Origin: a virus
Lineage: Duplodnaviria > Heunggongvirae > Uroviricota > Caudoviricetes
Direction: 5' to 3' (one strand)
IMG/VR virus record: IMGVR_UViG_2681813146_000002
Length of the DNA stretch: 47,946 bases
The first letter of the stretch is position 1; the number at the start of each line of letters is the position of its first letter. The notes below the pieces were generated by a model, which did no database searches, was not told where the DNA came from, and saw nothing but the letters and a program-made list of their open reading frames with translations. Shown one piece after another: positions 4,857 to 41,411 of the stretch. A program made the position numbers and the translations under genes.

Positions 4857-5850
4857 AACGCTTTTTGATGTTATATATCAGAATGTAAATATTACCGCTC
4901 ATATGTCGCCTGATATTTTATCAATATCTTATACGGATAATGAAGATGGTCAGGTCGATGATATATCAATTACATTAAAAAATGATGATGGAAAATGGTC
5001 TGGAGACTGGACACCTAAAAAGGGTGATTTTATTGATTTGAGCTTTAAGCCTATAAATCAAATTGTCCTTGAGTGCGGGAAATTCCAGGTAGATGGCATA
5101 ACTTGCTCTGGGCCACCTTCTGTTGTTGAGGTGACTGCTGTTTCTGTTCCTGTTTCATCAGGAATCAGACGTAATTTAAAAAGTAATGCATGGGAAAAGA
5201 CAACACTCAAAGATATTGCTGCATCTATAGCTAAATTAGCTAATATTGAATTGTTGTTCCTTATTGATAAGGATAGTAATCCATATTATGCGCGTGAAGA
5301 TCAGACTGAGGAAAGCGACTTAAAATTTCTCCATCGGCTTTGCCAGGATGAAGGATTATCGTTAAAGGTTACTGATACCCAATTAGTGATATTTGCTCAA
5401 GAGATGTTTGAGCAAAGAGAGCCTATCGCCACGCTTACATTAGGCGTTGATGAGATAATAAGATATAGCTTTAGCACACAATCTACGGATTTGTATAAAA
5501 GTTGTACATGTAAATATCGTATTCCGAAGAAAAGAAAATCGCTTTCATATACTTGGGTAGATCCATCTGTAGAAGAAGGGTCGAATCTTAAAATAAGAAA
5601 AGTGGTAGCTAATTTAGATGAAGCAAAACGTAAGGCAAAAGCCGCTTTGCGGCTTAAAAATAGATATCAAAATACCGGGTCTTTAGTATTGGTTGGAGAC
5701 ACTAGGCTGGTAGCTGGTGTAACTATAAGCCTAGAAGGGTTTGGTTCATTTTCTGGAAAATATCTTATATCGAAAGCTGTACATTCAATTGGGGCCAGTA
5801 GTGGTTATACCACCTCGATTGATGTCCGAAGAGTAATTAGCGGGTATTAA
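4846..5850 (+). CDS. Tail/baseplate hub protein (P2 gpD / Mu gpP-like)
   Basis: 334 aa, in the tail module between the LysM protein and the spike gene. Confidence 0.5.
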   Translation: MLRKTLFDVIYQNVNITAHMSPDILSISYTDNEDGQVDDISITLKNDDGKWSGDWTPKKGDFIDLSFKPINQIVLECGKFQVDGITCSGPPSVVEVTAVSVPVSSGIRRNLKSNAWEKTTLKDIAASIAKLANIELLFLIDKDSNPYYAREDQTEESDLKFLHRLCQDEGLSLKVTDTQLVIFAQEMFEQREPIATLTLGVDEIIRYSFSTQSTDLYKSCTCKYRIPKKRKSLSYTWVDPSVEEGSNLKIRKVVANLDEAKRKAKAALRLKNRYQNTGSLVLVGDTRLVAGVTISLEGFGSFSGKYLISKAVHSIGASSGYTTSIDVRRVISGY

Positions 5851-5851
5851 T

Positions 5852-6472
5852 ATGAATGATTTAGAAACATTATTACGTCAGACTATAAGAGTTGGCGTTG
5901 TTTCTGATATTGATGATGGTGATGTTACAGCAAGAGTTACTTTCGATGATCAGGATAACGTCACTTCGGCAAAGTTATCAGTTATTGTGAAAAACACAGA
6001 TAAGAATGCTGATTACTGGATGCCAGATATTGGCGAGCAGGTTTTGTGTATCTTTCATCCCGCGGGGCCGCAACAAGGTTTTATTCTTGGTAGTTTTTAT
6101 GATGAAACACAGAAGCCGCCATCTAATACTGTTAATAAACGCGTCATTAGATTTAATAACGGAACTCGTATTGAGGTAGACAGAGAATCTAATTTACTCC
6201 TTGTTGATGCTGTCGGAGATGTAACCGTTAAGGCTACAGGAACCGTAACTATTGATGCTCCAGAAACCATCATTACCGGAAATGCTACAGTTGAAGGATT
6301 ACTAACCTTCAAAGGTGGAATGAAAGGATCTTCTGCTGGAGGTGTTGCAGCTACAATTTCTGGGGATGTTAAGGTTGTTGGTGGTGATATAGATGTTGAT
6401 GGGATTAAATCTAAAGGCCACCATCACACAGCTCAGGGGGAATACGCTCCGACAACGGAGGCTCAGGCATGA
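5852..6472 (+). CDS. Baseplate spike protein (gpV-like)
   Basis: 206 aa. N-terminal pattern resembles the Phage_base_V family; glycine-rich C-terminus. Confidence 0.6.
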   Translation: MNDLETLLRQTIRVGVVSDIDDGDVTARVTFDDQDNVTSAKLSVIVKNTDKNADYWMPDIGEQVLCIFHPAGPQQGFILGSFYDETQKPPSNTVNKRVIRFNNGTRIEVDRESNLLLVDAVGDVTVKATGTVTIDAPETIITGNATVEGLLTFKGGMKGSSAGGVAATISGDVKVVGGDIDVDGIKSKGHHHTAQGEYAPTTEAQA

Positions 6473-6936
6473 TTGTGGGTATGCTTGGTACAATGCCTTT
6501 TGTTGCCTCATCAATAGTGGTGAATACGTTCAACAATTTTAAAAGGACGTCAAAGCGTCGTGTAGCGCGCCATGATGTTATTGGGCTTAAACCTGTTCTG
6601 GAGGATATAGGTCCAGATCTGGATGAAGTTGGTTTTAATATGCGGCTGGATACAACACTTGGCATTGTTCCATTGGCTGCGCTTTCATTACTTAGGACAA
6701 TGCAATCAATTCAGGAAGTAAATCCTGTTGTAATTGGTATTCAGTATTTTGGTAATTTTATAATTACAGATATAGAGGAATCATGGACTTATTTCGGTCC
6801 AACTGGGAATCCACGAGTGATTATCGTCGGCATTAAATTACAGGAGGTCGGACAGACCTCTCTGAAAGAAGCATTAGTTGATATTGCTGGCAATATAGAG
6901 TCAAAAACTAGAAGTGCGTTAGGTAAATTATTATGA
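6469..6936 (+). CDS. Tail/baseplate protein, family uncertain
   Basis: 155 aa, translationally coupled between the gpV-like and gpW-like genes. Confidence 0.4.
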   Translation: MIVGMLGTMPFVASSIVVNTFNNFKRTSKRRVARHDVIGLKPVLEDIGPDLDEVGFNMRLDTTLGIVPLAALSLLRTMQSIQEVNPVVIGIQYFGNFIITDIEESWTYFGPTGNPRVIIVGIKLQEVGQTSLKEALVDIAGNIESKTRSALGKLL

Positions 6937-7253
6937 ATAATACGTTTACCATATCATCACCTTCTTACTCGATTGATTGGTCGCCCAAAACAGTTGTAGA
7001 AGAAGTTTTGCAAAATGTCTCTACTATTATTAACACTCAGATTGGCACTGTGCCATATGCCAGAAAATTAGGAATTAATTCAAGTCTTGTTGATATCCCC
7101 AGCCCAATTTTTATTGCTACAGCAACACGAGAAATAATTCAAAAAATTAGTGAGTTTGAGCCTAGAGCGATTATCCATTCTGTTACTTTTGAAAGAACGG
7201 ACGTTTCTGATGGTTTTATTAGGCCAAAACTTGTGATAGGAGTTAGAGAATGA
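6933..7253 (+). CDS. Baseplate wedge protein (gpW / gp25-like)
   Basis: 106 aa, size and position typical of GPW_gp25. Confidence 0.6.
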   Translation: MNNTFTISSPSYSIDWSPKTVVEEVLQNVSTIINTQIGTVPYARKLGINSSLVDIPSPIFIATATREIIQKISEFEPRAIIHSVTFERTDVSDGFIRPKLVIGVRE

Positions 7254-8978: not shown

Positions 8979-11357
8979 GTGAGTAAATTATTATTTACGA
9001 TGACTGACGCCGGTCGTCAGGAACTGGTTAATGCCAACAAGACTGGAACAAATAAAGTTGAGATCGTTTCTGTTGGTTTAGGTAGTAGATATTATGTCAC
9101 ATCAACCACACAAACAAAAATAACAGATGAAATAAAGCGACTTACCACAATAGGAGGCAAAGTCGTTTCTCCTGATACCATTCATGTAACTGCGAAGGAT
9201 GATAGTAAAGATGAGTATGTTGTCCATACAATAGGTTTGTATACAAATAAAGGAACATTGTTTGCTGTATACTCGCAAGAACAAGTAATAATAAATAAAG
9301 CATCTTCTACTATTGCTTTAATATCAAGTGATATAGCAATTAAAAATCTTGATACTAAAAACATTACATTTGGTGATGTTGAGTTTATTAACCCTCCCGC
9401 AACCGAAACTGTTGTTGGAGTAGCAAGATTTGCTAATGAACAAGAAATTGATGCAGGTACAGATGATTCCCTGGCTGTTTCAGCAAAGCGACTTAAGCAA
9501 GCCATTGTAAAACATGAGCAATCACGTAATCATCCTGATGCAACTTTAACCTCAAAAGGCATTGTTCAACTCAGTAGTGACACTAACAGTACCTCTGAAA
9601 CGCGCGCTGCAACGCCAAAAGCCGTCAAAGAAGTGTTTGACCTAACGAAGCAAAAACAACCAGCAGATGATACGCTCACCGCTCTGGCAGGACTTGCGAC
9701 GGCTGCAAATAAATTGCCGTACTTTACCGGTAAAGACACAGTAGCCCTGGCTGATTTAACGTCAGTCGGCCGTAATATTCTGGCTAAAACAAGTGTCCTT
9801 GCTGTTATCCAGTACCTTGGTTTAAGAGAACTCGGCACAAGCGGTGAAAAGATCCCCCTGTTGAGCACGGCTAACACATGGAGTGAACGCCAGACTTTCA
9901 ACGGCGGACTCAACGGCGCACTGACGGGGAACGCCGACACCGCAACGAAATTAAAAACCGCACGGAAGATTAACAACGTTTCATTTGACGGTTCGTCAGA
10001 TATTACTTTAACAGCCTCGGATATCGAAGCATTGCCACTGGAGGATGCCCGGAAGATTATTCAACCGCTACCTGATGTGTGGATACCGTTTAACGATTCG
10101 CTGGATATGATTACGGGCTTTTCGCCATCATATAAAAAGATTGTTATTGGCGACGACGAAATAACAATGCCTGGCGACAAGGTTGTTAAGTTTAAACGCG
10201 CATCGAAAGCAACCTATATTAATAAATCTGGTGTGCTTACAGAGGCTGCCATTGACGAGCCACGATTTGAACGTGATGGCCTGCTTATTGAGGGACAAAG
10301 AACAAACTACATGCTCAATTCGGAAAACCCTGCCAGTTGGGAGCGATCGTCAAATATGGATGTTCCCGAAACCGGGACGGATAGTTTTGGTTTTACCTAT
10401 GGAAAGTTTGTCTGTAACGATTCTCTGATTGGGCAAACCTCAGCCATTAATATGGCATCAATTGCTGCAACAAAGTCAGTTGATGTCTCAGGCGATAATA
10501 AATACGTGACAACCTCATGTCGTTTTAAAACAGAACTGCAGGTAAGGTTGCGTATCCGGTTTGATAAATATGACGGTAGCGCAACAACTTTTCTTGGTGA
10601 TGCGTATATTGATACACAAACGCTTGAAATTAATATGACAGGTGGTGCTTCCGGTAGAATTACGGCACGAGTCAGGAAGGATGAAACTACAGGATGGATT
10701 TTTGCTGAGGCAACAATTCAGGCAATTGATGGGGAGTTAAAAATAGGTTCTCAGATACAGTATTCTCCTAAGCAGGGCGGGGCAACCGTATCTGGTGACT
10801 ATATTTATCTGGCCACCCCACAAGTAGAAAATGGGCCTTGTGTATCATCTTTTATTATATCAGGAACGACGGCGGCGACCCGCGCAAGCGATATAGTTAC
10901 AGTTCCCATTAAGAATAATCTTTATAATCTTCCTTTTACGGTTCTTTGTGAGGTACATAAGAACTGGTATAAAACGCCAAATGCAGCGCCGCGTGTTTTT
11001 GATACAGGCGGTCATCAAACCGGAGCGGCTATTATTCTTGGCTTCGGTTCTTCAGCAGATTACGACGGATTTCCTTATTGCGATATTGGAGGAGCTAACA
11101 GACGGGTAAACGAAAACGCATCGCTTGAAAAAATGGTTATGGGGATGCGTGTAAAATCAGATCAGTCTACGTGCTCAGTAAGTAACGGGCGCATATCCAG
11201 CGAAACAAAGACTACGTGGTCCTATATTCAGAACTCTGCAACCATCCGTATTGGAGGCCAGACTACAGCAGGGTTACGTCATTTATTTGGTCATATCAGG
11301 AATTTCAGAATATGGCATAAAGCATTAACAGACCAACAAATGGCTGAGGTTATTTAA
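8979..11357 (+). CDS. Tail fibre protein 1
   Basis: 792 aa. GTG start after an AAGG ribosome-binding site. Contains the conserved segment [22 protein letters not shown] shared with the second fibre. Confidence 0.7.
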   Translation: MSKLLFTMTDAGRQELVNANKTGTNKVEIVSVGLGSRYYVTSTTQTKITDEIKRLTTIGGKVVSPDTIHVTAKDDSKDEYVVHTIGLYTNKGTLFAVYSQEQVIINKASSTIALISSDIAIKNLDTKNITFGDVEFINPPATETVVGVARFANEQEIDAGTDDSLAVSAKRLKQAIVKHEQSRNHPDATLTSKGIVQLSSDTNSTSETRAATPKAVKEVFDLTKQKQPADDTLTALAGLATAANKLPYFTGKDTVALADLTSVGRNILAKTSVLAVIQYLGLRELGTSGEKIPLLSTANTWSERQTFNGGLNGALTGNADTATKLKTARKINNVSFDGSSDITLTASDIEALPLEDARKIIQPLPDVWIPFNDSLDMITGFSPSYKKIVIGDDEITMPGDKVVKFKRASKATYINKSGVLTEAAIDEPRFERDGLLIEGQRTNYMLNSENPASWERSSNMDVPETGTDSFGFTYGKFVCNDSLIGQTSAINMASIAATKSVDVSGDNKYVTTSCRFKTELQVRLRIRFDKYDGSATTFLGDAYIDTQTLEINMTGGASGRITARVRKDETTGWIFAEATIQAIDGELKIGSQIQYSPKQGGATVSGDYIYLATPQVENGPCVSSFIISGTTAATRASDIVTVPIKNNLYNLPFTVLCEVHKNWYKTPNAAPRVFDTGGHQTGAAIILGFGSSADYDGFPYCDIGGANRRVNENASLEKMVMGMRVKSDQSTCSVSNGRISSETKTTWSYIQNSATIRIGGQTTAGLRHLFGHIRNFRIWHKALTDQQMAEVI

Positions 11358-11635
11358 TGAAAGATATTACGTTGAAATTCAGAGACAGAGCAGAATACGA
11401 CTCTTTTTTAGAGAGTATATCCTGGCACGATAATGAAGAACTGCAAAACAACATCCTTCTTGATGTTGTAGGTATTACATATACCGAAATACCAAACGGC
11501 GAGAACGAAGAACCAACAGTGATTAAAAATGATGGCTTCTTTGTTAATGTTCGTATTTTAAACGACAGTTTGAAACAACAAATGTTTGATGGTTTTGAAG
11601 TTCAATTAGAACAACCGCTGCGGGAATGGGCGTAA
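11357..11635 (+). CDS. Hypothetical protein between the tail fibre genes
   Basis: 92-aa ORF, acidic. No recognisable motif. Confidence 0.35.
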   Translation: MKDITLKFRDRAEYDSFLESISWHDNEELQNNILLDVVGITYTEIPNGENEEPTVIKNDGFFVNVRILNDSLKQQMFDGFEVQLEQPLREWA

Positions 11636-11644
11636 GGAATTAAT

Positions 11645-12577
11645 ATGGCAACAGTGACAACGATACCAGCAGATATAACTAATCTGAAAAAAGAAATCGA
11701 CTCTATTAAGAGTGATGTTGCTAAAAAACTGGAAATTTCAGGCGGCACAATAACTGGTGATCTAACAGTTGTTGGTGGCATTTCTGGTGAGCTGTCCGGA
11801 AATGCCTCAACAGCCACAAAACTAAAAACCGCGCGAAAGATTAATTCCGTTTCGTTTGATGGTTCAAAAGACATTAACCTCACGCCTGAAAATGTTGGTG
11901 CATTGCCAATAACCGGAGGAGCTCTTACCGGCGGTTTAACGGCTGCTGGCGAGATTGTTTCCAAATCAGGAAACGGCTTCCGCATCGTACAGGGTAACTA
12001 TGGATTCTTTATCCGAAACGATGGTTCAAACACATACTTCATGTTGACCAATTCGGGCGACAGCCTGGGAACATGGAATAGTTTAAGGCCGCTTACCATT
12101 AACGATGCCAGTGGTGGAGTAACTATTGGGAACGGTTTAACGGTTAATGGTTCTCTTGGTCTGGGTACTAAAAATGCTCTTGGCGGTAACTCTATCGTTC
12201 TTGGCGATAATGATACTGGTTTTAAACAGAACGGTGACGGCCTGCTTGATGTTTATGCAAATAGCCATCATGTATTCCGCTTTCAGAATGGTACTTTGCA
12301 GAGTAACAACCCAGTTAATGTCGCAGGTCAGGTGACTCCATCAGATTACGGTAATTTTGATTCCAGATATGTGAAAGATGTTCGACTTGGTTCACAACAA
12401 TATTATGGAGTGAACAACTGGCAAACATGGAATTTCCAGTGCCCGTCAGGTCATGTATTGTCTGGTATTAATGTTCAGGATACAGGGTCCAACTCTGCCG
12501 ATAATATAGCGGGCGTTTATTACAGACCCGTTCAAAAGTATATAAATGGCACTTGGTATAATGTAGCGAGCGTTTAA
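11645..12577 (+). CDS. Tail fibre protein 2
   Basis: 310 aa. Shares the [23 protein letters not shown] module with fibre 1; glycine-rich repeats. Confidence 0.65.
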
Positions 12578-12578
12578 T

Positions 12579-13106
12579 ATGATGCACTTAAAGAACATAA
12601 AAGCGGGCAACGCTAAAACACTGGAACAGTATGAGTTAACAAAGAAACACGGAGTTATCTGGCTTTACTCTGAGGACGGAAAAAACTGGTATGAGGAAGT
12701 GAAAAACTTTCAGCCAGACACAATAAAGATTGTTTACGATGCAAATAATATTATTGTCGCCATCACTAAAGATGCCTCTACGCTTAACCCTGAAGGTTTT
12801 AGCGTTGTTGAGGTTCCTGATATTACCTCCAACCGACGTGCTGATGACTCAGGTAAATGGATGTTTAAGGATGGTGCCGTGATTAAGCGGATTTATACGG
12901 CAGGCGAACAGCAACAACAGGCCGAATCACAAAAGGCCACGTTACTTTCCGAAGCTGAATCAGTTATCCGGCCGCTGGAACGCGCTGTCAGGCTGAGCAT
13001 GGCAACAGATGAGGAGCGTAGCCGACTGGAAGCCTGGGAACGTTACAGTGTTCTTGTCAGTCGCGTGGACACAGCAAACCCCGAATGGCCAGACAAACCA
13101 GAATAA
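12579..13106 (+). CDS. Tail fibre assembly chaperone (Tfa-like)
   Basis: 175 aa immediately after the fibre gene. N-terminal pattern typical of Tfa proteins. Confidence 0.6.
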
Positions 13107-32067: not shown

Positions 32068-32143
32068 GGCCCCTTAGCTCAGTGGTTAGAGCAGGCGACT
32101 CATAATCGCACGGTCATCGGTTCAAATCCGGTAGGGGCCACCA
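32068..32143 (+). tRNA. tRNA with anticodon CAT (Met, or Ile2 if lysidine-modified), CCA encoded
   Basis: Manual cloverleaf: acceptor GGCCCCT/AGGGGCC, D-arm GCTC..GAGC, anticodon loop CTCATAA, T-arm with TTCAAAT loop, discriminator A plus CCA. Confidence 0.8.
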
Positions 32144-32450: not shown

Positions 32451-33038
32451 ATGGAGGCAATTGCATTGTTTAATCTGATTTATGCAGATCCCCCCTGGGA
32501 ATACAAAGACAAGTGTAAGGATGGGAATCGTGGCGCTGGTTTTAAGTATCCAACGATGAAAGCTGAGGATATTGCTCGTATTCCTGTCTGGCAGCTTGCT
32601 AATCCTGAATCGTGTTTGTTGGCCATGTGGTGGGTTCCGACTCAGCCAGAAGAAGCGTTGCTGGTGGTGAAAGCATGGGGATTCAGGCTGATGACCATGA
32701 AGGGCTTCACATGGAACAAATGTGGTAGCCGACAACCAGATAAGCTGGTGATGGGGATGGGGCATATGACTCGTGCAAACAGTGAAGATTGCTTGTTTGC
32801 GGTAAAAGGCAAACTGCCGACCCGCCTTGATGCGGGGATCATTCAGTCGTTTACATCGCCTCGTCTGGAGCATTCTCGGAAGCCTGATGTGGTTCGTGAC
32901 AAGCTGGTAAGGCTGTTAGGTGATGTTCCCCGTATTGAGCTGTTTGCTCGCGGTGATTTACCTGATGGCTGGCATGGCTGGGGCAACCAGTGCAATGGAG
33001 GTATCCAGTTGCATGATGCTCTCTGGCAAGTGGCATAG
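32451..33038 (+). CDS. MT-A70-family N6-adenine DNA methyltransferase
   Basis: DPPW catalytic motif in LIYADPPWEY. Size 195 aa. Confidence 0.65.
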   Translation: MEAIALFNLIYADPPWEYKDKCKDGNRGAGFKYPTMKAEDIARIPVWQLANPESCLLAMWWVPTQPEEALLVVKAWGFRLMTMKGFTWNKCGSRQPDKLVMGMGHMTRANSEDCLFAVKGKLPTRLDAGIIQSFTSPRLEHSRKPDVVRDKLVRLLGDVPRIELFARGDLPDGWHGWGNQCNGGIQLHDALWQVA

Positions 33039-34554: not shown

Positions 34555-34872
34555 ATGGAAAAGAAAGAAGATAAACCGATTGCCATTGGTGCAGAGTCTG
34601 TTCCGTTTAAGTTTGAATTATCCCAACTGGTAACAATGCGTATCAGTGAAGAGTGGGGAGAAGTTCAAGCCCGTGCTCAGTATGCAAATGGCGAAAACCA
34701 GTATCTGATTCACTATCAGGCGGCTGATGGTCGTGCTACCACAGAGTGGTTCGGTGAGTCGATGCTGATTGCGATGGAAGATGATCGTTATCCAGGCTGC
34801 CCTGTTTTTGCCTGTGTTGATTTGCCAGAAGGCGCGGTACTTGAAGACGACGAAACGGCCGCCTCCGTTTGA
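34555..34872 (+). CDS. Hypothetical protein
   Basis: Start taken at MEKKEDK after the terminator; the track ORF starts 34486. Confidence 0.35.
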   Translation: MEKKEDKPIAIGAESVPFKFELSQLVTMRISEEWGEVQARAQYANGENQYLIHYQAADGRATTEWFGESMLIAMEDDRYPGCPVFACVDLPEGAVLEDDETAASV

Positions 34873-35117
34873 TCCCTGCGTAACGCATTACAGCAGCTCT
34901 TGTGCTTATCAGGGGCTGCAATAATGCGCAAACCAAAGTCACCTCATTAACTCCAGCTCGCTGTGGAGTTAATGCTGGTGGCTTTTTTATTACTGGAAGG
35001 TGGGCGACCGCCGTCAGTTGCGACCTGACGACAGTCATTCATACCCACACGGTGCCGTGGATACAAACCGAGGCCCACTTGCTTGCACAAGCGAGGGGAT
35101 TTTAGCGGATAAACGGC

Positions 35118-35741
35118 ATGACAAAACATCTTAATGTGGTTTCTTTACCACTTTCTGTGTTGATTGGTTATGAAAAGAACGCTCGCACACACTCCGTGGA
35201 GCAGGTAGATCAGATTGTTGCCAGCATACAGGAGTACGGATGGACTAATCCGATCCTGATAGACGAGAACAACGTTGTAATTGCTGGTCATGGTCGAATT
35301 GCTGCGGCCACTCAGTTGGGGATGGATGATGTTCCCTGCATTGTTCTGGAAGGGCTAACGGAGAATCAGAAGAAGGCATATCGTCTGGCCGACAACCGTA
35401 TTCCGCTGAATGCTGGTTGGGATGAAGAGTTGTTAAGCGCGGAGCTTGCAGATCTTGCGGCCGATGATTTTGCTCTGGACTCAATTGGTTTTACTCAGCG
35501 CGAGCTGGATAACTTATTGAGTGCGGCGGTCTACGATGACACAGAGGGTATGGATATCCCATTTGAGAAGGATGAGGCCAAATCAGGCGTAAAAGTTCAG
35601 TACCTGTCATTTGGAGGTCATAAAATCCCGGCAACGGATGAGGAAGCAGATCGTTTTGACTGCGCGGTATCTCGTTATGTTGATGATAATGGCAGCTATA
35701 TCGGATTTGTATCCGCATTGCTGGCTGGGGAGGTGTGCTGA
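35118..35741 (+). CDS. ParB-N-domain (ParB/Srx-fold) protein, copy 1
   Basis: Motif VVIAGHGRIAAATQLG. Paralogous to 38408..38998. Confidence 0.55.
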   Translation: MTKHLNVVSLPLSVLIGYEKNARTHSVEQVDQIVASIQEYGWTNPILIDENNVVIAGHGRIAAATQLGMDDVPCIVLEGLTENQKKAYRLADNRIPLNAGWDEELLSAELADLAADDFALDSIGFTQRELDNLLSAAVYDDTEGMDIPFEKDEAKSGVKVQYLSFGGHKIPATDEEADRFDCAVSRYVDDNGSYIGFVSALLAGEVC

Positions 35742-37114
35742 TGCTTCATCTCAATTACGACATAACGCACCTACGCGGCGCGGAATATAACCCGCGTTTT
35801 ATTGGTGAGGATGATCTTGCGAGGCTGGCGGAAAGCGTCAGGGAGCTGGGGCTTGTGAAGCCATTGATAGTGCGCGGCGATTTGCTGGTGGCGGGACACC
35901 AAAGGACGAAGGCGCTACGTAAGTTGGGAATAACGCGTGCTGCGGTGTATGTGTTGCCCTGTGAAACGACGGTATACGACGAAGTACGGTTTAACCAACT
36001 GCATAACGGAACGGATTTTGATAGCGGAGATGAGCGTTGCAGGGTGTCCGGTCTGGAAGATAAGCATGGTTTTGTTCAGGTATCGGCAAGCCAGATCTCA
36101 GGCAATATGCGCGCGAAAATGGCATATGTTCGAAAGAACATAGCGGAACTGGTTATCAAGTATGGTCCGTGGGGTGGTTGTGTTGCTACTCAGTCTGGTG
36201 AGGTTATTCACTGTGCTCAGTATGCATTAGCAGCGAAGATGACGCGCACACCGCTAACGGTGTTTGTGATCCCTGATGTTGAGAAGGAAAAATACCAAAG
36301 TTATCTGAATAAAACTTATGGTGTATTTGAGTATTCTCATCTGGAGAAAACAACATACATCCAGACGTATGCGCAGCTTATGCGGTTGCGTAATGGTGGC
36401 AGCCTGAAATCAAACCTGTATGAGTCGTTGATCCTCCCGATCATTGCCAAGACGCCAAGAGGAATTGATTTTGGTTCGGGTCAGGGAGACTACGCGCGAA
36501 TGCTCAGGGCAAAGGGATATAACCTGCATGATCTCGAGCTTTTCCGCCGTAAGGGCGCTGGAAACACTCTGGATAGGACCGCAACAAACCGGATGATTGA
36601 TACGCTGGTGGACGACTTAAAAACGCGAGGGCGTTACGACTACGTGATTTGCGATAGCGTTTTGAACTCGGTCGATAGTGTCGAGGCTGAATGGTCCGTT
36701 CTGACGGTTCTGAAAGGCTTGTGTAAAGCTGGTGGGTCAATATTCTTTTCTGGCCGTAGCCGTGGAGAGCTGGAAACAGTCCTGAAGCAAACACAAGCTG
36801 CGAGTTCCAAAAGCCGGCTTTATTTTATCGATCATAACGGTTTTACCGCGTTGTACCGGAAGGGGCACTGGTTTTACCAGAAGTTTCACTCTGATGAGGA
36901 AGTGAAGCAGTTGTGTCGTGTACATGGTTTCAGGATTAAGCGGTCAATATTCAACTGTAAGAGCTGGTATTTGCACGTCATTAACGATGATTCCCTTAGT
37001 TGGGCGAGTCTGGAGAAAGCTGTTCGTTTTGAGTTTGAGTTGCCGTTGCCTGGTGGTTCAACAATCGGACGATCTGATGATGTGCTGGCGGCTTTCCGGC
37101 CGTTGATTAAGTAG
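35735..37114 (+). CDS. Fusion protein: ParB-N-like domain plus class I SAM-dependent methyltransferase domain
   Basis: N-terminal LLVAGHQRTKALRKLG. C-terminal glycine-rich motif I IDFGSGQGDYA. No DPPY-type motif seen, so the substrate is unknown. Confidence 0.5.
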   Translation: MLMLHLNYDITHLRGAEYNPRFIGEDDLARLAESVRELGLVKPLIVRGDLLVAGHQRTKALRKLGITRAAVYVLPCETTVYDEVRFNQLHNGTDFDSGDERCRVSGLEDKHGFVQVSASQISGNMRAKMAYVRKNIAELVIKYGPWGGCVATQSGEVIHCAQYALAAKMTRTPLTVFVIPDVEKEKYQSYLNKTYGVFEYSHLEKTTYIQTYAQLMRLRNGGSLKSNLYESLILPIIAKTPRGIDFGSGQGDYARMLRAKGYNLHDLELFRRKGAGNTLDRTATNRMIDTLVDDLKTRGRYDYVICDSVLNSVDSVEAEWSVLTVLKGLCKAGGSIFFSGRSRGELETVLKQTQAASSKSRLYFIDHNGFTALYRKGHWFYQKFHSDEEVKQLCRVHGFRIKRSIFNCKSWYLHVINDDSLSWASLEKAVRFEFELPLPGGSTIGRSDDVLAAFRPLIK

Positions 37115-37130
37115 TGTGTAGGAGGCGCTG

Positions 37131-37850
37131 GTGGCTGACAGAATTGAGATAAAGATGGATTTTTCTTCTCAGGATATTCAACGACAACTCCAGCGCCTTG
37201 AAGAGCGCGAATTGCCGTTCGCAATGGCGCTTGCGGCAACCAGAACGGCAAAGGCTTCTCAGGCTGCGATTAAGAATGAAATTAATCGAGTATTTGACAG
37301 GCCCACGCCGTGGATTCAGAACTCTACTTACGTTTTGGCCGCAAAGAAGAGTGATCCTACAGCCATTGTGTATGCTCGTGAATGGGGTGGAACGCCAGCC
37401 CCTGTAACGTTGACTCCGCAAATCGAAGGCGGTCAACGACAGTACAAGCGCTCAGAAGGGGCACTAAGGGCTGGTGGATATTTGCCTAACGGCTGGCAGC
37501 TTGCTCCTGGTCCCGGCGCAAAGCTGGACAAATACGGGAATATTTCGCGGGGGCAATTACAGCAGGTCTTATCTGGTCTAAGAGTTCAGCGAGATGCGCA
37601 TCAAAATCGCCGTCAGGGCAAGCCTACGGAGTTTTTTGTTGTTCGACCTGGTACAAGTAACCCGCTTCAACCAGGCGTCTGGCAGCGCGTTGGGCGGCGT
37701 CCTACGTTGATCCTTACGTTTATCCAGCAACCTAACTATTCGCAGCGTCTTGATTGGCATGGCGTGGCGCTGCGTGCTGGTGAGGATGCGTTTGCTGATG
37801 AAGTCACAAAGGCTATTGATGACATCCTTTCTAAGACGTTCTCTCGTTAA
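37131..37850 (+). CDS. Hypothetical protein
   Basis: 239-aa ORF. GTG start after GGAGG. Confidence 0.35.
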   Translation: MADRIEIKMDFSSQDIQRQLQRLEERELPFAMALAATRTAKASQAAIKNEINRVFDRPTPWIQNSTYVLAAKKSDPTAIVYAREWGGTPAPVTLTPQIEGGQRQYKRSEGALRAGGYLPNGWQLAPGPGAKLDKYGNISRGQLQQVLSGLRVQRDAHQNRRQGKPTEFFVVRPGTSNPLQPGVWQRVGRRPTLILTFIQQPNYSQRLDWHGVALRAGEDAFADEVTKAIDDILSKTFSR

Positions 37851-38151
37851 TCATCGTGTGGTTGATGGTGTTGTTATGCAGGGTGTATTCACTGTGTTCT
37901 GTAGCGTCGCTCGCAGGCTGTCTGTGGGTGGGCACGAGCATCGTTTCATCGTCCGGCAGAATTGGGTCCTTCTGGCCAAAAGCGTTGGATGCGGGTCATT
38001 CGAACCCCGATGTTCGGCTAGCTAAACGTGAAAAAAGTTAGGTTAAAAGTTGCGGTAAAAGAAATTTACTCATCTCATTGAAAAATATCGGGAAAACGTG
38101 ATTTTTTGCTGTATTTGTGCTGGTAAAAAGAAAGTAGAAAATTTTCTTTTA

Positions 38152-38336
38152 GATCATCAAGATACGCGCAGATCTTTAACCAATGTGATGTTGTTCTGAT
38201 AAAAATCGTTATAAATCATGCAAATACATCCAATCTTTTAACCAAAACACCATCTCAAGATCCTTTTTACTTATAAAAACTTAATAAAATCAGATGATTA
38301 TGCTGGTTTGTGTGATTTTTTATGAGTAAAAAGATC
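38152..38336. promoter_or_regulatory. AT-rich intergenic region with four AGATC (GATC) sites upstream of the packaging genes; candidate pac or regulatory region
   Basis: GATC at 38152, 38171, 38259 and 38333, each preceded by A, within a ~550-bp noncoding stretch (37851..38407). Confidence 0.3.
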
Positions 38337-38407
38337 GTCATTTTTCTCTTTTAGTATCAATAAGTTAAACAGTTTTCTTTAACCTGTTGTGTTATGGCGG
38401 TTAAAAA

Positions 38408-38998
38408 ATGGCTCTAAAAATCGAATATTTACCAGTCGGTAAGCTGCTCAGATACGCCAAAAATTCACGGACTCATTCAGATGAGCAAGTTGAACAGTTG
38501 GTGAACAGTATCCGTGAGTTCGGTTTCACTAATCCTGTGCTGATCGATGAAAAGAATGAACTGATTGCGGGGCATGGGCGGCTTGCAGCAGCCGAAATTC
38601 TGGAAATGGATAAAGTTCCAGCGATTCGGTTGAGTAACCTTTCTGAAAAACAGAAGAAGGCTTACAGGATTGCAGATAACAAGCTGGCCTTAAATGCTGG
38701 CTGGGATATGCAGCTTCTGGCCGAAGAAGTCAAAGCGTTAATGGATGATGATTTTGATATTGATCTGCTTGGGTTTAATGATGCAGAGCTTGACGAAATG
38801 TTAAGCGATGAACAGCCGCAGGAAGAAGACGATAATTCTTCCCCTGTTGTTCAAATTAAGTACCTGGCTATTGATAAAGAACGTATTCCCGCGACGGATA
38901 TGGAAATTGCATTGTTGCTGGATGTTTATCGTCAGTACCACGACGCGCATGAAACGCATGAGGGATTTGTTCAGTATCTTGCTAATGGTTGCAAGTAA
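38408..38998 (+). CDS. ParB-N-domain protein, copy 2
   Basis: Motif ELIAGHGRLAAAEILE. Roughly half identical to 35118..35741 by eye. Directly upstream of the terminase small subunit. Confidence 0.55.
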   Translation: MALKIEYLPVGKLLRYAKNSRTHSDEQVEQLVNSIREFGFTNPVLIDEKNELIAGHGRLAAAEILEMDKVPAIRLSNLSEKQKKAYRIADNKLALNAGWDMQLLAEEVKALMDDDFDIDLLGFNDAELDEMLSDEQPQEEDDNSSPVVQIKYLAIDKERIPATDMEIALLLDVYRQYHDAHETHEGFVQYLANGCK

Positions 38999-39549
38999 TG
39001 GCCATCGTCAGTAAGTCAGAGTTTGCCCGCCGAAAAGGTATTTCTCCGGCAATGGTTACGAAGCTCTGTCGTTCCGGTCGCATTCCAGTGCTGAAAAGCG
39101 GCAAGCTGGATTTTGATAAAGCCAGTGCGGCTTATGAAGCGAGCCGACAGGTTGGTCGTGAGGTATCTGCTGAAAATGGAAAAAGAGGGCATGGGATATC
39201 TTCGGAACAACCAGAGTTACCCGCTGATGATGCCGGATTAGCTGGTGGTACTTCCGGTGTTGCGGTGCAATTCAACAAGGCTAAGACCGCAGAAAAAATT
39301 TATCAGGCAAAGCTGAAACGCCTTGAATTTGAAGAAAAGGAAGGCTCTCTCATCGCTAAAGATGCGGTCAGGGATGATGCATTTCTGGCAGCTAATGAAT
39401 TGCGTAGCCGCTTATTTAGTATTGCTCCAAGAGCAGCTCCCCGTTGTGAAGGCAAAACAGCCAGGGAGATCGAACGCATTATTGAAGACGAGATTAATTT
39501 TGCGCTTCAGGCGCTCCAGGAATCCCGATTTATTAAGCAGGAAGAATAA
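38998..39549 (+). CDS. Terminase small subunit (Nu1-like)
   Basis: N-terminal HTH-like pattern resembling lambda Nu1. Position before the large subunit. Start is ATG 38998 or TTG 38989. Confidence 0.55.
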   Translation: MAIVSKSEFARRKGISPAMVTKLCRSGRIPVLKSGKLDFDKASAAYEASRQVGREVSAENGKRGHGISSEQPELPADDAGLAGGTSGVAVQFNKAKTAEKIYQAKLKRLEFEEKEGSLIAKDAVRDDAFLAANELRSRLFSIAPRAAPRCEGKTAREIERIIEDEINFALQALQESRFIKQEE

Positions 39550-39554
39550 ACCTC

Positions 39555-41411
39555 ATGGGCGAAACAGTATGGAGCACCGCTTTTTTCCGTGCGCTTCGCC
39601 CTAAATCACGGCTAACTGTTTCCGAATGGGCTGATAAGTATCGTCATGTAGCGCCGGGAACGTCTCCAGAGCCAGGGCCGTGGCGTACAAGCCGAGTGCC
39701 ATATTTGCGTGAACCAATGGATGTTATTGGTGACGCTGATACAGAAACAGTAGTGATGCAATGTAGCTCGCAAATTGGTAAATCCGAATTACAGCTAAAT
39801 GTTATGGGTTACTTTGCAGATCAGGAGCCATCTCCTCAGTTGATGATTTATCCAACGGTAGAGGCGGCTGAGGCTTTTTCAAAAGAGCGTATTGATCCGA
39901 CGTTCAAATATTCCCCTGGTTTGAAACACAAGCTGCATGAAGGGAAAGAGGGGCGCGGTGCAGCCAAAAAGTCCAGCACGACTATACGTATGAAGCATTA
40001 CGCTGGTGGATATATAGCACTTGTTGGTGCTAATTCCCCAGCAGGTCTTGCATCCAGGCCAATTCGAATACTGTTAGCTGATGAGATTGATCGTTACGGT
40101 GTGACGCAGGAGGGCGACCCACTAAAACTAGGTATTCAGCGTACTACCAACTTTCATAATCGTAAGAAAGTTTTTGTTTCTACTCCTGTTTTGGAGGAAA
40201 CGAGCAAAATCCACAAGTGGTTTAAGCTCTCCGATCAGCGTTACTACCATGTTCCTTGCCCATGTTGTGGCACCATGCAGGTGATGAAATGGTCGCAAGT
40301 CAGATGGGATAAGAGCGATTCAGGTGAGGCGTTACCGGAAACGGCCAGATATGAGTGCTGTGAGTGCGGCGGGATTATGCGCGGATCTGGTAAACCAGAC
40401 GTTGATTGGTTGGCGAAGGGGGTATGGATAGCTGAACATACTGGAGTTAAAGGTATTGTTGGTTTTCATATTAACAGTCTTTACTCCCCGTGGGTTGCAT
40501 TGTCAGAGCTGGTTGAAGAATTTACGGAAGCAACCAGAAACCGCGATAAAAATGGATTAATGGAGTTTATTAACCTTAAGCTGGGTGAGCCATGGAAAGA
40601 GGATGCTAAAGACGATATCGATCCTGAATACTTGTTGCAACGCAGAATAAGGTTTGAAGAGTTTTTACCAGATGATGTTTTATTGTTAAGTGCTGGTGTT
40701 GACGTACAGGACACGTATTTAGTTTGTGAATTGGTCGGTTGGGGAAAAGGTAAGGAGTCATGGGGGATAGAATATAAAATATTCCCAGGTGATCCCGCAC
40801 AAGATGTTGTCTGGAAACAACTTGATGAATACTTACTCCGTAGCTGGTCATTCCGTGACGGTCGAAAATTACAGATTTCTTCCGTTTGTATTGACTCTGG
40901 TGGGCATTTTACGACAGAGGTATATCGCTTTACTAAGCCGAGAGAATCAAGGCGAATATACTCTATCAGGGGGCGTGGTGGGGTAGGTTTACCATTTATA
41001 GGAAAGCCAAGTAATAATAACCGTGTGGGTGCTATGTTGTTTAATTTGGGGGTTGATGATGGTAAAGGGACCATCATGGCAAGAATTAAACTACATGATC
41101 CTGGTCCTGGTTATATGCATTTCCCATTAGATTCTGACAGAGGATATGATACCGAATACTTTAAAGGATTATTATCAGAGAAGAAAATATTTGAATATAA
41201 AAATGGGCAGACAAAAGAAAAGTGGGTGAAAGTCTACGAGCGTAACGAGCCTCTTGATTGCCGTAACTATGCAACTGCCGCGATGGAAATTCTGAACCCT
41301 AATTTTAACTGGCTTGCCGAACAGGAAATGCGAGGTAATGTGTATGTGCAGAACTCGTCAGGTATACGTAGAAGACGCCGTAGAGTTATAAGTAAAGGCG
41401 TAACCATATAG
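39555..41411 (+). CDS. Terminase large subunit (lambda gpA-like)
   Basis: 618 aa with a Walker A-like segment near QCSSQIGKSE. Sits between TerS and the portal. Confidence 0.75.
   Translation: MGETVWSTAFFRALRPKSRLTVSEWADKYRHVAPGTSPEPGPWRTSRVPYLREPMDVIGDADTETVVMQCSSQIGKSELQLNVMGYFADQEPSPQLMIYPTVEAAEAFSKERIDPTFKYSPGLKHKLHEGKEGRGAAKKSSTTIRMKHYAGGYIALVGANSPAGLASRPIRILLADEIDRYGVTQEGDPLKLGIQRTTNFHNRKKVFVSTPVLEETSKIHKWFKLSDQRYYHVPCPCCGTMQVMKWSQVRWDKSDSGEALPETARYECCECGGIMRGSGKPDVDWLAKGVWIAEHTGVKGIVGFHINSLYSPWVALSELVEEFTEATRNRDKNGLMEFINLKLGEPWKEDAKDDIDPEYLLQRRIRFEEFLPDDVLLLSAGVDVQDTYLVCELVGWGKGKESWGIEYKIFPGDPAQDVVWKQLDEYLLRSWSFRDGRKLQISSVCIDSGGHFTTEVYRFTKPRESRRIYSIRGRGGVGLPFIGKPSNNNRVGAMLFNLGVDDGKGTIMARIKLHDPGPGYMHFPLDSDRGYDTEYFKGLLSEKKIFEYKNGQTKEKWVKVYERNEPLDCRNYATAAMEILNPNFNWLAEQEMRGNVYVQNSSGIRRRRRRVISKGVTI

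Follow-up and report, generated by a model that had tools for sequence, protein, structure and literature searches.

A ParB-methyltransferase gene pair beside a probable cos site and terminase module in an Escherichia coli phage-plasmid

The IMG/VR virus record IMGVR_UViG_2681813146_000002 (47,946 nucleotides (nt); hereafter the window, to which positions refer unless another stretch is named) is approximately a complete 48-kb plasmid prophage, that of an Escherichia coli myovirus of the phage-plasmid kind. The cluster described here leads into its terminase genes and consists, in order, of the gene for a short ParB-N protein (ParB-A), a ParB-N/methyltransferase fusion gene, a gene for a protein of 239 amino acids (aa), a gap of 557 nt (37851-38407), a second short ParB-N gene (ParB-D), the small terminase subunit gene (TerS) and a large terminase subunit gene (TerL) of the lambda gpA type (Table 1). 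On balance, we read the cluster as the junction of two phage modules, in which a cassette of ParB-A and the fusion stands beside a cos/terminase module. The original prediction, made from the DNA alone, had called a ParB-N domain in three proteins and a methyltransferase on one of them, and profile searches (Pfam, PHROG) and structure models agree with these calls. Every open reading frame (ORF) that it listed exists, and the small terminase subunit gene does follow directly, with a phrog_57 TerS and then a gpA-type TerL, although two starts had to be corrected. The fusion begins at ATG 35741 rather than GTG 35735, in a TGATG overlap with the ParB-A stop codon and with a GGGGAGG Shine-Dalgarno sequence upstream, and for TerS the start is ATG 38998, which overlaps the stop codon of ParB-D as TAATG. 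By these overlaps, ParB-A and the fusion, and likewise ParB-D and TerS, are translationally coupled pairs.

The 4.6-kb interval is found at 99% identity or more in 48 of 74 matching E. coli genomes, and 80 of the 83 matching places lie on plasmids of ~46-52 kb, among them a plasmid of strain ATCC 25922. The copy in that strain carries, by its RefSeq annotation, RepA, a ParA locus, a toxin-antitoxin pair, lambda-like head genes and P2-like contractile-tail genes. Additionally, three plaque-forming phages of Yersinia pestis (vB_YpM_39, vB_YpM_41 and vB_YpM_44) are ~99% identical to the 4.6-kb interval. The phage-plasmid family is thus tractable, being present as a plasmid in E. coli, including ATCC 25922, and having close relatives that plaque on Y. 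pestis EV76.

The gap between the 239-aa gene and ParB-D is very probably a cos site. It had been described as a 550-bp AT-rich noncoding stretch; the gap is real, but only ~38010-38400 is AT-rich (with a GC minimum of 0.287, the lowest of the whole element), and its first ~150 nt have normal GC content and contain the presumed cleavage site. The database records of the three Yersinia phages break at 37993/37994 or at 38005/38006 of the window. That of vB_YpM_44 ends ...GCGGGTCATTCGAAC, closing with GGTCATTCGAAC, and begins CCCGATGTTCGG... (CCCGATG), and those of vB_YpM_39 and vB_YpM_41 begin GGTCATTCGAACCCCGATG..., opening with GGTCATTCGAAC, and end 12 nt earlier. Such a 12-nt offset between near-identical phage records is what a 12-nt cohesive end produces. 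Around the two breaks, TGCGGGTCATTCGAACCCC (37990-38008, 19 nt) is invariant in a four-way alignment of this element, a Salmonella plasmid, a chromosomal prophage of Yersinia mollaretii and a metagenomic contig, in which mean column identity is 66%. The linear record of Vibrio cholerae phage X29, whose TerS is 43% identical, ends ...TTTGGGTCCTCCCAGC...GAGCGGGTGCTCGCGA and begins CCCCGGCTTTCGTCTAGCTAC..., and this end junction is colinear with TTGGGTCCTTCTGGCC...TGCGGGTCATTCGAAC on the left and CCCGATGTTCGGCTAGCTAA on the right in the element studied here. Together, the record ends, the invariant block, the X29 junction and the gpA-type TerL point to 37994-38005 as cosN. A packaging site in this interval had been no more than a guess, and the record ends of the three Yersinia phages, like the homologous junction of X29, indeed fall inside the gap. 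Against reading these positions as physical termini, they are start and end points of database records rather than ends mapped at read level, and the Yersinia records are flagged as circular. With this proviso, a likely cos site and cohesive end are now supplied for the phage-plasmid family.

Features on the upstream side of the presumed cut resemble those of other phage genome ends. The block TTGGGTCCTTCTGGCCAA is conserved in the Salmonella relatives and partly in Y. mollaretii, and X29 has TTTGGGTCCTCC at the same distance from its right end, making the block a cosQ-like candidate. Homologues of the 239-aa protein are encoded by the last gene, ~100-250 nt from the record end, in about ten Pseudomonas F10-like phages. 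In F10 itself, 99 nt separate the end of gp63 (3375-4118 of the compared stretch) from the right genome end, and the first nucleotide of TerS is nt 67; the 239-aa gene of this element ends 143 nt before the predicted nick, and its Y. mollaretii homologue (5769-6488 of the compared stretch) lies directly before the cos gap. As the protein has no Pfam or PDB match, its annotation comes from phrog_1924; the 'tail' label of that family may be wrong and a packaging role is conceivable. A scan of 34800-39700 for promoters and terminators found none in the gap and, over the scanned region, fewer promoter-like sites than in shuffled sequence, and an Rfam scan of 37000-39200 (E up to 1) returned only a 14.7-bit chance match. 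The IHF-like site at 38355 is one of five such matches in the window and is not conserved in the Salmonella relatives.

The AT-rich part of the gap contains an array of a 9-bp motif, CTTT(T)(T)A(A)C(C), with copies at 38041(-), 38054(-), 38122(-), 38174(+), 38235(+), 38263(+), 38326(-) and 38377(+). Over this span (38041-38384), three minus-strand copies lie nearest cosN and are followed by mostly plus-strand copies. A first-order Markov model of the region predicts 0.6 copies, and none of 2000 simulations reached eight; the density of the motif is 19.8 per kb in the array and 1.4 per kb elsewhere in the window. An invariant block, AAAAGTTAGGTTAA, lies at 38033-38046. In Y. mollaretii, the homologous gap of 512 nt holds eight copies of TTGTTAAC, the only eight in 14.6 kb, and here too three minus-strand copies are followed by five plus-strand ones, with the first spacings matching (13, 68/69 and 50/52 nt; 6634-6974 of the compared stretch). 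In X29, the 139 nt that separate the left genome end from the ParB gene contain GTTAACA five times, in four cases as GTTAACAC. The motif therefore varies in a concerted way among relatives (it is CTTTTAACC in this element, TTGTTAAC in Y. mollaretii and GTTAACAC in X29) with positions and orientations kept, a pattern characteristic of sites that co-evolve with the protein reading them. We assign the array to TerS because TerS has an N-terminal helix-turn-helix (HTH) that differs between the two elements: its putative recognition helix reads SPAMVTKLCRS here and SRAAITKLCHA in Y. mollaretii, in parallel with the change of motif. By this comparison of relatives, the array is probably a cosB equivalent read by TerS, with ParB-D as the alternative reader, and its motif variants offer a natural specificity-swap series for whichever protein reads it (for example, CTTTTAACC to TTGTTAACC). 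Part of the array is dispensable, because vB_YpM_44, isolated as a phage, is viable without the 90-nt segment 38134-38223 and the one motif copy in it. The array also contains an imperfect inverted repeat (38259-38337; GATCCTTTTTAC...(~45 nt)...GTAAAAAGATC), flanked by GATC sites that are conserved in Salmonella. It is made of two opposite motif copies, and its arms show matched changes (ACTTAT/ACTCAT and ATCCAT/ACCCAT).

Four AGATC sites in the gap had suggested methylation-controlled packaging at GATC, a proposal that is not supported. It would have packaging governed, as at the pac site of P1, by adenine methylation of these sites, written by the MT-A70 enzyme that the element encodes or by host Dam, and the flanking of the conserved inverted repeat by two of the sites speaks for it. 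However, base composition predicts 1.1-1.8 GATC sites for a stretch of 557 nt, and at least four occur in 6.9% of the element's windows of that size, so the four observed are not above chance. Of these four, the Salmonella relatives retain just those at 38259 and 38333 and Y. mollaretii retains none; those at 38152 and 38171 lie in the segment that the viable vB_YpM_44 lacks. A pac site of the P1 type would show an enriched GATC cluster flanking the cut, whereas the sites here lie 150-340 nt from it, and the terminase is of the gpA/cos type rather than the PacA/PacB type of P1. We consider GATC control of packaging scarcely credible.

The two modules of the cluster can be told apart by their separate occurrence. 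One comprises ParB-A and the fusion, and the other runs from the 239-aa gene through cos, ParB-D and TerS to TerL. In the chromosomal prophage of Y. mollaretii, lysis genes are followed by the 239-aa gene, the gap, a ParB-D orthologue, TerS and a gpA-type TerL, and ParB-A and the fusion are absent; in the Vibrio phages X29 and XM1 the left end is followed by ParB, TerS and TerL in that order (the X29 module lacking the 239-aa gene). The position of ParB-D, as the first gene after cos, is also occupied in the Salmonella plasmids, the Y. mollaretii prophage and both Vibrio phages, and the X29 ParB is 59% identical to ParB-D over 145 aa. The downstream, second ParB copy of the whole cluster is restricted to close relatives of the element, the Salmonella plasmids included. 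There are three ParB genes because the ParB-A and fusion cassette adjoins a cos module that already holds a ParB of its own. Local duplication was considered as the origin of ParB-A and ParB-D and was ruled out, each belonging to a separate module that is found without the other. In one Salmonella relative, plasmid CP053324 of S. enterica subsp. salamae, the fusion, the 239-aa gene and TerL are fragmented (1900-3800 and 5800-6300 of the compared stretch), reflecting either a decaying element or frameshift errors in the assembly.

The ParB-A and fusion pair recurs well beyond this element. The original prediction had regarded a duplicated ParB pair plus a fusion as unusual, but the pairing of a short ParB with the fusion is widespread in phages: of 66 viral loci that could be evaluated, 53 have a short ParB adjacent to the fusion on its upstream side (within 60 nt), and in seven others the distance is at most 750 nt. 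The fusion family itself has at least 777 homologues with the same length and the same pair of Pfam domains, from Enterobacteria, Bradyrhizobium and Hyphomicrobium and from phages of Bacteroides and Brochothrix. The first downstream ORF of at least 380 aa encodes a large terminase in ~40 of 44 loci, and these terminases belong to at least five families (gpA, 14; Terminase_6, ~15; Terminase_3, 5; TerL_ATPase, 3; T7-like, 3); in individual phages, ParB and the fusion stand directly upstream of terminases of the Terminase_2, gpA and Terminase_6 types. Gene order across these loci indicates that ParB-A and the fusion form a conserved mobile two-gene cassette that tracks terminase genes whatever their family. 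In addition, the short-ParB gene of such a pair lies 20-500 nt from the upstream end of several independent viral contigs, and in those phages the pair may come first at the left genome end.

The short proteins ParB-A and ParB-D are 48% identical over their full length and both match phrog_620 (E ~1e-74); the ParB-N domain of the fusion is only distantly related to them. Pfam ParB_N (PF02195) is detected in all three proteins (E = 2e-5, 3e-5 and 4e-8), above its gathering score in ParB-D alone. In the AlphaFold2 (AF2) model of ParB-A (pLDDT, the model's confidence score, 76), ParB-N is followed by three helices, a disordered linker of acidic character and, at the C-terminus, a small domain of 45 aa with beta-beta-alpha-alpha topology. 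The model matches structures of ParB, Noc, KorB, PadC and sulfiredoxin (Foldseek E = 2e-6 and weaker, probability 1.00), with alignments to ParB, Noc and KorB spanning ~140 residues. A GHGR P-motif, which contains the arginine of Box II (GERR-like), is invariant in 31 short ParBs. This arginine of ParB-N is needed for nucleoside triphosphate (NTP) binding; as histidine replaces the glutamate of GERR, the chemistry of hydrolysis may differ. In sequence, GFTQRELDNLL of the short ParBs resembles the first helix of a ParB HTH and appears to have no recognition helix after it, and the AF2 model of ParB-A, with only three helices after ParB-N, contains no complete HTH. The C-terminal parts match no Pfam family, and no dimerisation domain is recognised in them. 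Over its first 135 aa, ParB-D is 45-60% identical to the N-terminal regions of DNA adenine methyltransferases from phages, and the profile search matched both phrog_498 (ParB-N with a DNA methyltransferase) and phrog_21315 (ParB-N with MT-A70). The N-terminal part of phrog_21315 (415 aa) is matched by ParB-A and ParB-D and its C-terminal half by the stand-alone MT-A70 enzyme of this element; phrog_21315 therefore appears to be a family of ParB-N and MT-A70 fusions in phages, and the short ParBs might also serve MT-A70 in trans. The conservation of ParB-D between cos and TerS from Vibrio to Escherichia, along with its coupling to TerS, suggests a packaging cofactor.

None of the three ParB-N proteins is the partition protein of the plasmid. 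Their scores against TIGR00180 (ParB/RepB/Spo0J; 31.0, 16.4 and 40.1 bits) do not reach its cutoff of 58.45, and there is no ParA within the cluster, the sole ParA lying at ~21.3-22.0 kb on the opposite strand. ParB genes in clusters of this kind should not be read as evidence of plasmid partitioning. Thousands of phage genomes have ParB-fold genes beside terminase genes that carry the annotation 'partition protein' or 'nuclease'.

The fusion protein matches phrog_5475, a family annotated as 'unknown function', along its entire length (E = 2e-265, 881 bits, residues 3-459 of 459), and contains Pfam Methyltransf_23 at residues 233-400. Its structure model (mean pLDDT 93) consists of ParB-N (1-90), a conserved middle domain (~100-222), a Rossmann methyltransferase and C-terminal helices. 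Residues 1-90 have, in the model, the strand and helix order of the ParB-N fold, and the fusion profile matches Spo0J (6sdk, E = 2e-8). The methyltransferase has the Rossmann-like fold, the motif I (GxGxG) and the acidic residue after strand 2 of class I S-adenosylmethionine (SAM) methyltransferases. Invariant in the family are the P-motif GHQR (in 49 fusions), FNQLHNGTD, the SAM-binding DFGxGxGD and E266. No family was detected for the middle domain by Pfam or profile comparison. Its strand and helix order had hinted at a second ParB/Srx-like domain, a candidate that was rejected when hhalign gave a probability of 0.4% for the N-terminal domain against the middle one.

We propose, tentatively and as a possibility that the present data leave somewhat short of probable, that the cassette acts through association of ParB-N domains and late delivery of the methyltransferase, leading to modification of progeny DNA. 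TerS would most likely bind the eight 9-bp sites of the array with its HTH, as a cosB-like element beside cosN. The cassette, inserted just upstream of the cos module, would be expressed with the late genes, and ParB-A would associate with the fusion by way of the nucleotide-binding ParB-N domain that each carries. The pair could then deliver the methyltransferase to phage DNA that has been replicated and is about to be packaged or is already being packaged, when the downstream terminase genes are expressed, with anti-restriction or self-marking modification of progeny DNA as the outcome, and ParB-D would serve as an accessory factor of the TerS/TerL complex at cos. Such action would be analogous to that of ParB-N fusions with N6_N4 or MT-A70 methyltransferases and to ParB-dependent thymine dioxygenases. 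We infer the reader of the array, the ParB-A:fusion complex, the DNA substrate and the packaging role of ParB-D. An anti-restriction function had been among the earlier suggestions, and anti-restriction or DNA modification is still the most plausible role for the fusion, with DNA as the presumed substrate of its methyltransferase. The role of a ParB switch in phage DNA modification or packaging is directly testable in the ATCC 25922 and Y. pestis system.

Several observations weigh against delivery of a DNA methyltransferase by the cassette, and most of them concern the enzyme. Its sequence matches no recognised DNA-methyltransferase family (N6_N4, Dam, MT-A70 and C5-cytosine profiles), and on reading it we found neither a DPPY-type motif ((D/N/S)PP(Y/F/W)) nor a C5-cytosine motif (PCQ/ENV). 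The family is also unusually uniform: mean column identity is 57%, the middle domain is rich in invariant residues, and a variable region for target recognition is absent, which fits one fixed substrate better than sequence-specific DNA methylation. Because the ParB-A model lacks a complete HTH, DNA binding by ParB-A or ParB-D is without direct support. As for packaging, the slot upstream of terminase genes is a common one for accessory genes, so that synteny alone is no proof of a packaging function, and ParB-D is not universally required, because F10 and Acinetobacter phage HFM1 have related modules without a ParB gene (judged, for HFM1, from the 233 nt before TerS). The main rival, favoured by the neighbours of the catalytic domain and by the uniformity of its family, is a methyltransferase acting on something other than DNA (a nucleotide bound by ParB-N, a signalling molecule, tRNA, or a virion or terminase protein), in which case the cassette would be an anti-defence or metabolic module in an accessory slot. 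The close structural neighbours of the domain, which is UbiG-like, are indeed all small-molecule or tRNA methyltransferases; Srx and SerK show the ParB fold serving small-substrate enzymes, and ATP binding has been reported for ParB-fold/SAM-methyltransferase fusions (PMC12704722). Yet many phages carry the same ParB-N module joined to bona fide DNA methyltransferases, phage ParB-fold partners are repeatedly tied to DNA modification (PMC13229309), and conserved placement beside five terminase families is hard to square with a purely metabolic enzyme. We therefore regard a non-DNA substrate as rather unlikely, while ranking it ahead of the other alternatives.

Among these, the ParB-N proteins could be nucleases or nickases that help terminase to cut cos, in the manner of HNH endonucleases in HK97-like phages. 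TerL has a complete GpA_nuclease domain of its own, related cos modules such as that of F10 have no ParB gene at all, and ParB and the fusion also precede headful-type terminases (Terminase_2, _3 and _6), which need no helper for nicking cos; moreover, the ParB-N fold is now seen mainly as an NTP-binding switch. These points make a nicking role improbable, even though ParB genes flank cos and adjoin TerS, the cos-proximal places that HNH genes take elsewhere are held here by the 239-aa gene and ParB-D, and the ParB-methyltransferase between TerS and TerL of a Bacillus cereus prophage nicks DNA non-specifically (PMC3592412; PMC5512222). A similarly low probability attaches to binding of the array by ParB-D, and possibly ParB-A, as a centromere-like or regulatory site in the manner of KorB, VirB or HerB, for late or terminase transcription, counter-silencing or partition. 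Short repeats in both orientations beside a ParB-fold gene resemble parS or operator arrays, they occupy the lowest-GC segment of a plasmid prophage, and ParB-like regulators are known (PMC13370423), but the short ParBs have, by model and sequence, neither an HTH recognition helix nor a ParA-interaction motif, and the distant TIGR00180 scores and the separate ParA locus described above apply here as well. A chromosomal prophage carries the same module, as do Vibrio phages whose genomes were deposited as linear; the gap yielded no sigma-70-like promoter, and it is the HTH of TerS that co-varies with the motif. More speculatively, the ParB-fold proteins might be nucleotide-gated parts of the machinery for packaging: as a third subunit, coupled to TerS, ParB-D would be loaded at or beside the cosB array and mark the start of packaging, and ParB-A and the fusion would form a heterodimeric ParB-N clamp that travels on DNA and methylates it as it is fed to terminase, possibly with unconventional chemistry given the UbiG-like catalytic domain. 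We think this unlikely, if a little less so than nicking or array binding by the ParB proteins; were it true, the ParB switch would be a general phage device coupling DNA modification to encapsidation. Partition, nicking, regulation and GATC control are thus all less likely than late modification of progeny DNA by the cassette.

Table 1. Features of the cluster and its surroundings, with positions in the window.
Feature	Position	Strand	Basis
MT-A70 family methyltransferase, stand-alone	32451..33038	+	Pfam MT-A70 (E = 3e-23); phrog_359 'DNA methyltransferase'; context only
ParB-A, short ParB-N protein, 207 aa	35118..35741	+	Pfam ParB_N; phrog_620; AF2 model
ParB-N/methyltransferase fusion, 457 aa	35741..37114	+	ParB-N, aa 1-90; middle domain, ~100-222; class I SAM methyltransferase, ~225-415
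239-aa protein	37131..37850	+	phrog_1924 (E = 2.5e-97), annotated 'minor tail protein'
Conserved block TTGGGTCCTTCTGGCCAA, cosQ-like candidate	37962..37979	+	conservation upstream of the presumed cleavage site
Putative cosN, 12-nt cohesive end GGTCATTCGAAC	37994..38005	.	predicted nicks 37993/37994 and 38005/38006
cosB-like array, eight motif copies	38033..38385	.	over-representation; relatives
IHF-consensus-like site TATCAATAAGTTA (WATCAANNNNTTR)	38355..38367	+	pattern match, weak
ParB-D, short ParB-N protein, 196 aa	38408..38998	+	Pfam ParB_N above gathering score; phrog_620
TerS, 183 aa, N-terminal HTH	38998..39549	+	phrog_57 (E = 7e-42); weak HTH matches
TerL, lambda gpA type	39555..41411	+	Pfam GpA_ATPase (E = 7e-76) and GpA_nuclease (E = 1e-84)

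Two further observations concern other parts of the element. A tRNA gene with a CAT anticodon (32068-32143) lies between the lysis genes and MT-A70; it is tRNA-Met according to ARAGORN and the Yersinia phage record and tRNA-Ile according to PGAP in the ATCC 25922 copy, a call that implies the lysidine-modified Ile2 type. Tail-fibre and tail-fibre-assembly genes are present in both orientations beside a small serine recombinase (10150-12887 of the ATCC 25922 copy; roughly 11300-13100 of the window), and this segment looks like an invertible host-range segment of the Gin/Cin type.

Several known systems bear comparison with this locus. With the ParB of canonical ParABS systems and the ParB/parS of P1, it shares the ParB-N fold, the P-motif arginine, a nearby array of short repeats and residence on a plasmid prophage; unlike canonical ParB, its proteins have no ParA partner and no complete HTH, score below the TIGR00180 cutoff and coexist with a separate ParA locus. 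HNH genes sit beside cos in HK97-like phages, and the 239-aa gene and ParB-D are likewise conserved accessory genes at the genome end by cos, although they show no HNH motif or fold and TerL brings its own gpA nuclease domain.

Closer parallels come from phage proteins that join a ParB fold to a DNA-modifying enzyme. Fusions of the ParB-CTPase fold to Methyltransf_23 (PF13489) have already been catalogued as enriched in phages and prophages, where Methyltransf_23 and N6_N4 rank with the most strongly enriched domains in fusions to the ParB fold (Kaljevic et al., 2025; PMC12704722). The same authors suggest anti-defence roles and report that some SAM-methyltransferase fusions bind ATP; the word 'terminase' is absent from the main text of their paper. 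The protein described here is a full-length member of that family (phrog_5475) with identical domain architecture, and the present analysis establishes its upstream short-ParB partner and its placement before terminase genes. A second parallel is the phage ParB that activates a neighbouring thymine dioxygenase (5mYOX) specifically on double-stranded DNA; this ParB combines a nucleotide-binding with a C-terminal domain and lacks a DNA-binding one (O'Toole et al., 2026; PMC13229309). There, as here, a small phage ParB stands beside a DNA-modifying enzyme, a role that for the present enzyme is presumed, and the ParB-A model has that layout; the likeness is one of layout, and the partner here is a methyltransferase with a second ParB-N domain of its own. 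The ParB-N and N6_N4 fusions of phrog_498 (for example, B. cereus Bce_0392; PMC3592412) use a ParB-N subfamily that is 45-60% identical to ParB-D over ~135 aa, and Bce_0392 is also located next to TerS and TerL, whereas ParB-N stands alone in ParB-A and ParB-D, or on a UbiG-like methyltransferase without amino-methyltransferase motifs. A possible parallel with M.EcoGII, as an enzyme with a ParB domain by a terminase, was dropped, since 'ParB', 'terminase' and 'packag' are absent from its paper. The locus separates two conserved arrangements, a cassette of a short ParB with a ParB-methyltransferase and a short ParB wedged between cos and TerS.

The cos region itself is most readily compared with that of lambda (Nu1/gpA). 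Both have a gpA-type TerL, a 12-nt cohesive end (predicted here), a cut that is surrounded by partial two-fold symmetry and preceded by a conserved block, short sites arrayed between cosN and the TerS gene, and a TerS with an N-terminal HTH. TerS of this element has no Phage_Nu1 match in Pfam and belongs to phrog_57 instead, whereas the TerS of F10 does match Nu1. Eight sites over ~340 nt here contrast with the three R sites over ~120 bp of lambda, and this element differs further in having a ParB-fold gene between the array and TerS, the 239-aa gene before cos and a contractile P2-like tail. The components of the locus are of known kinds: a probable lambda-type cos site, proteins of the ParB-fold superfamily and a catalogued ParB-methyltransferase fusion.

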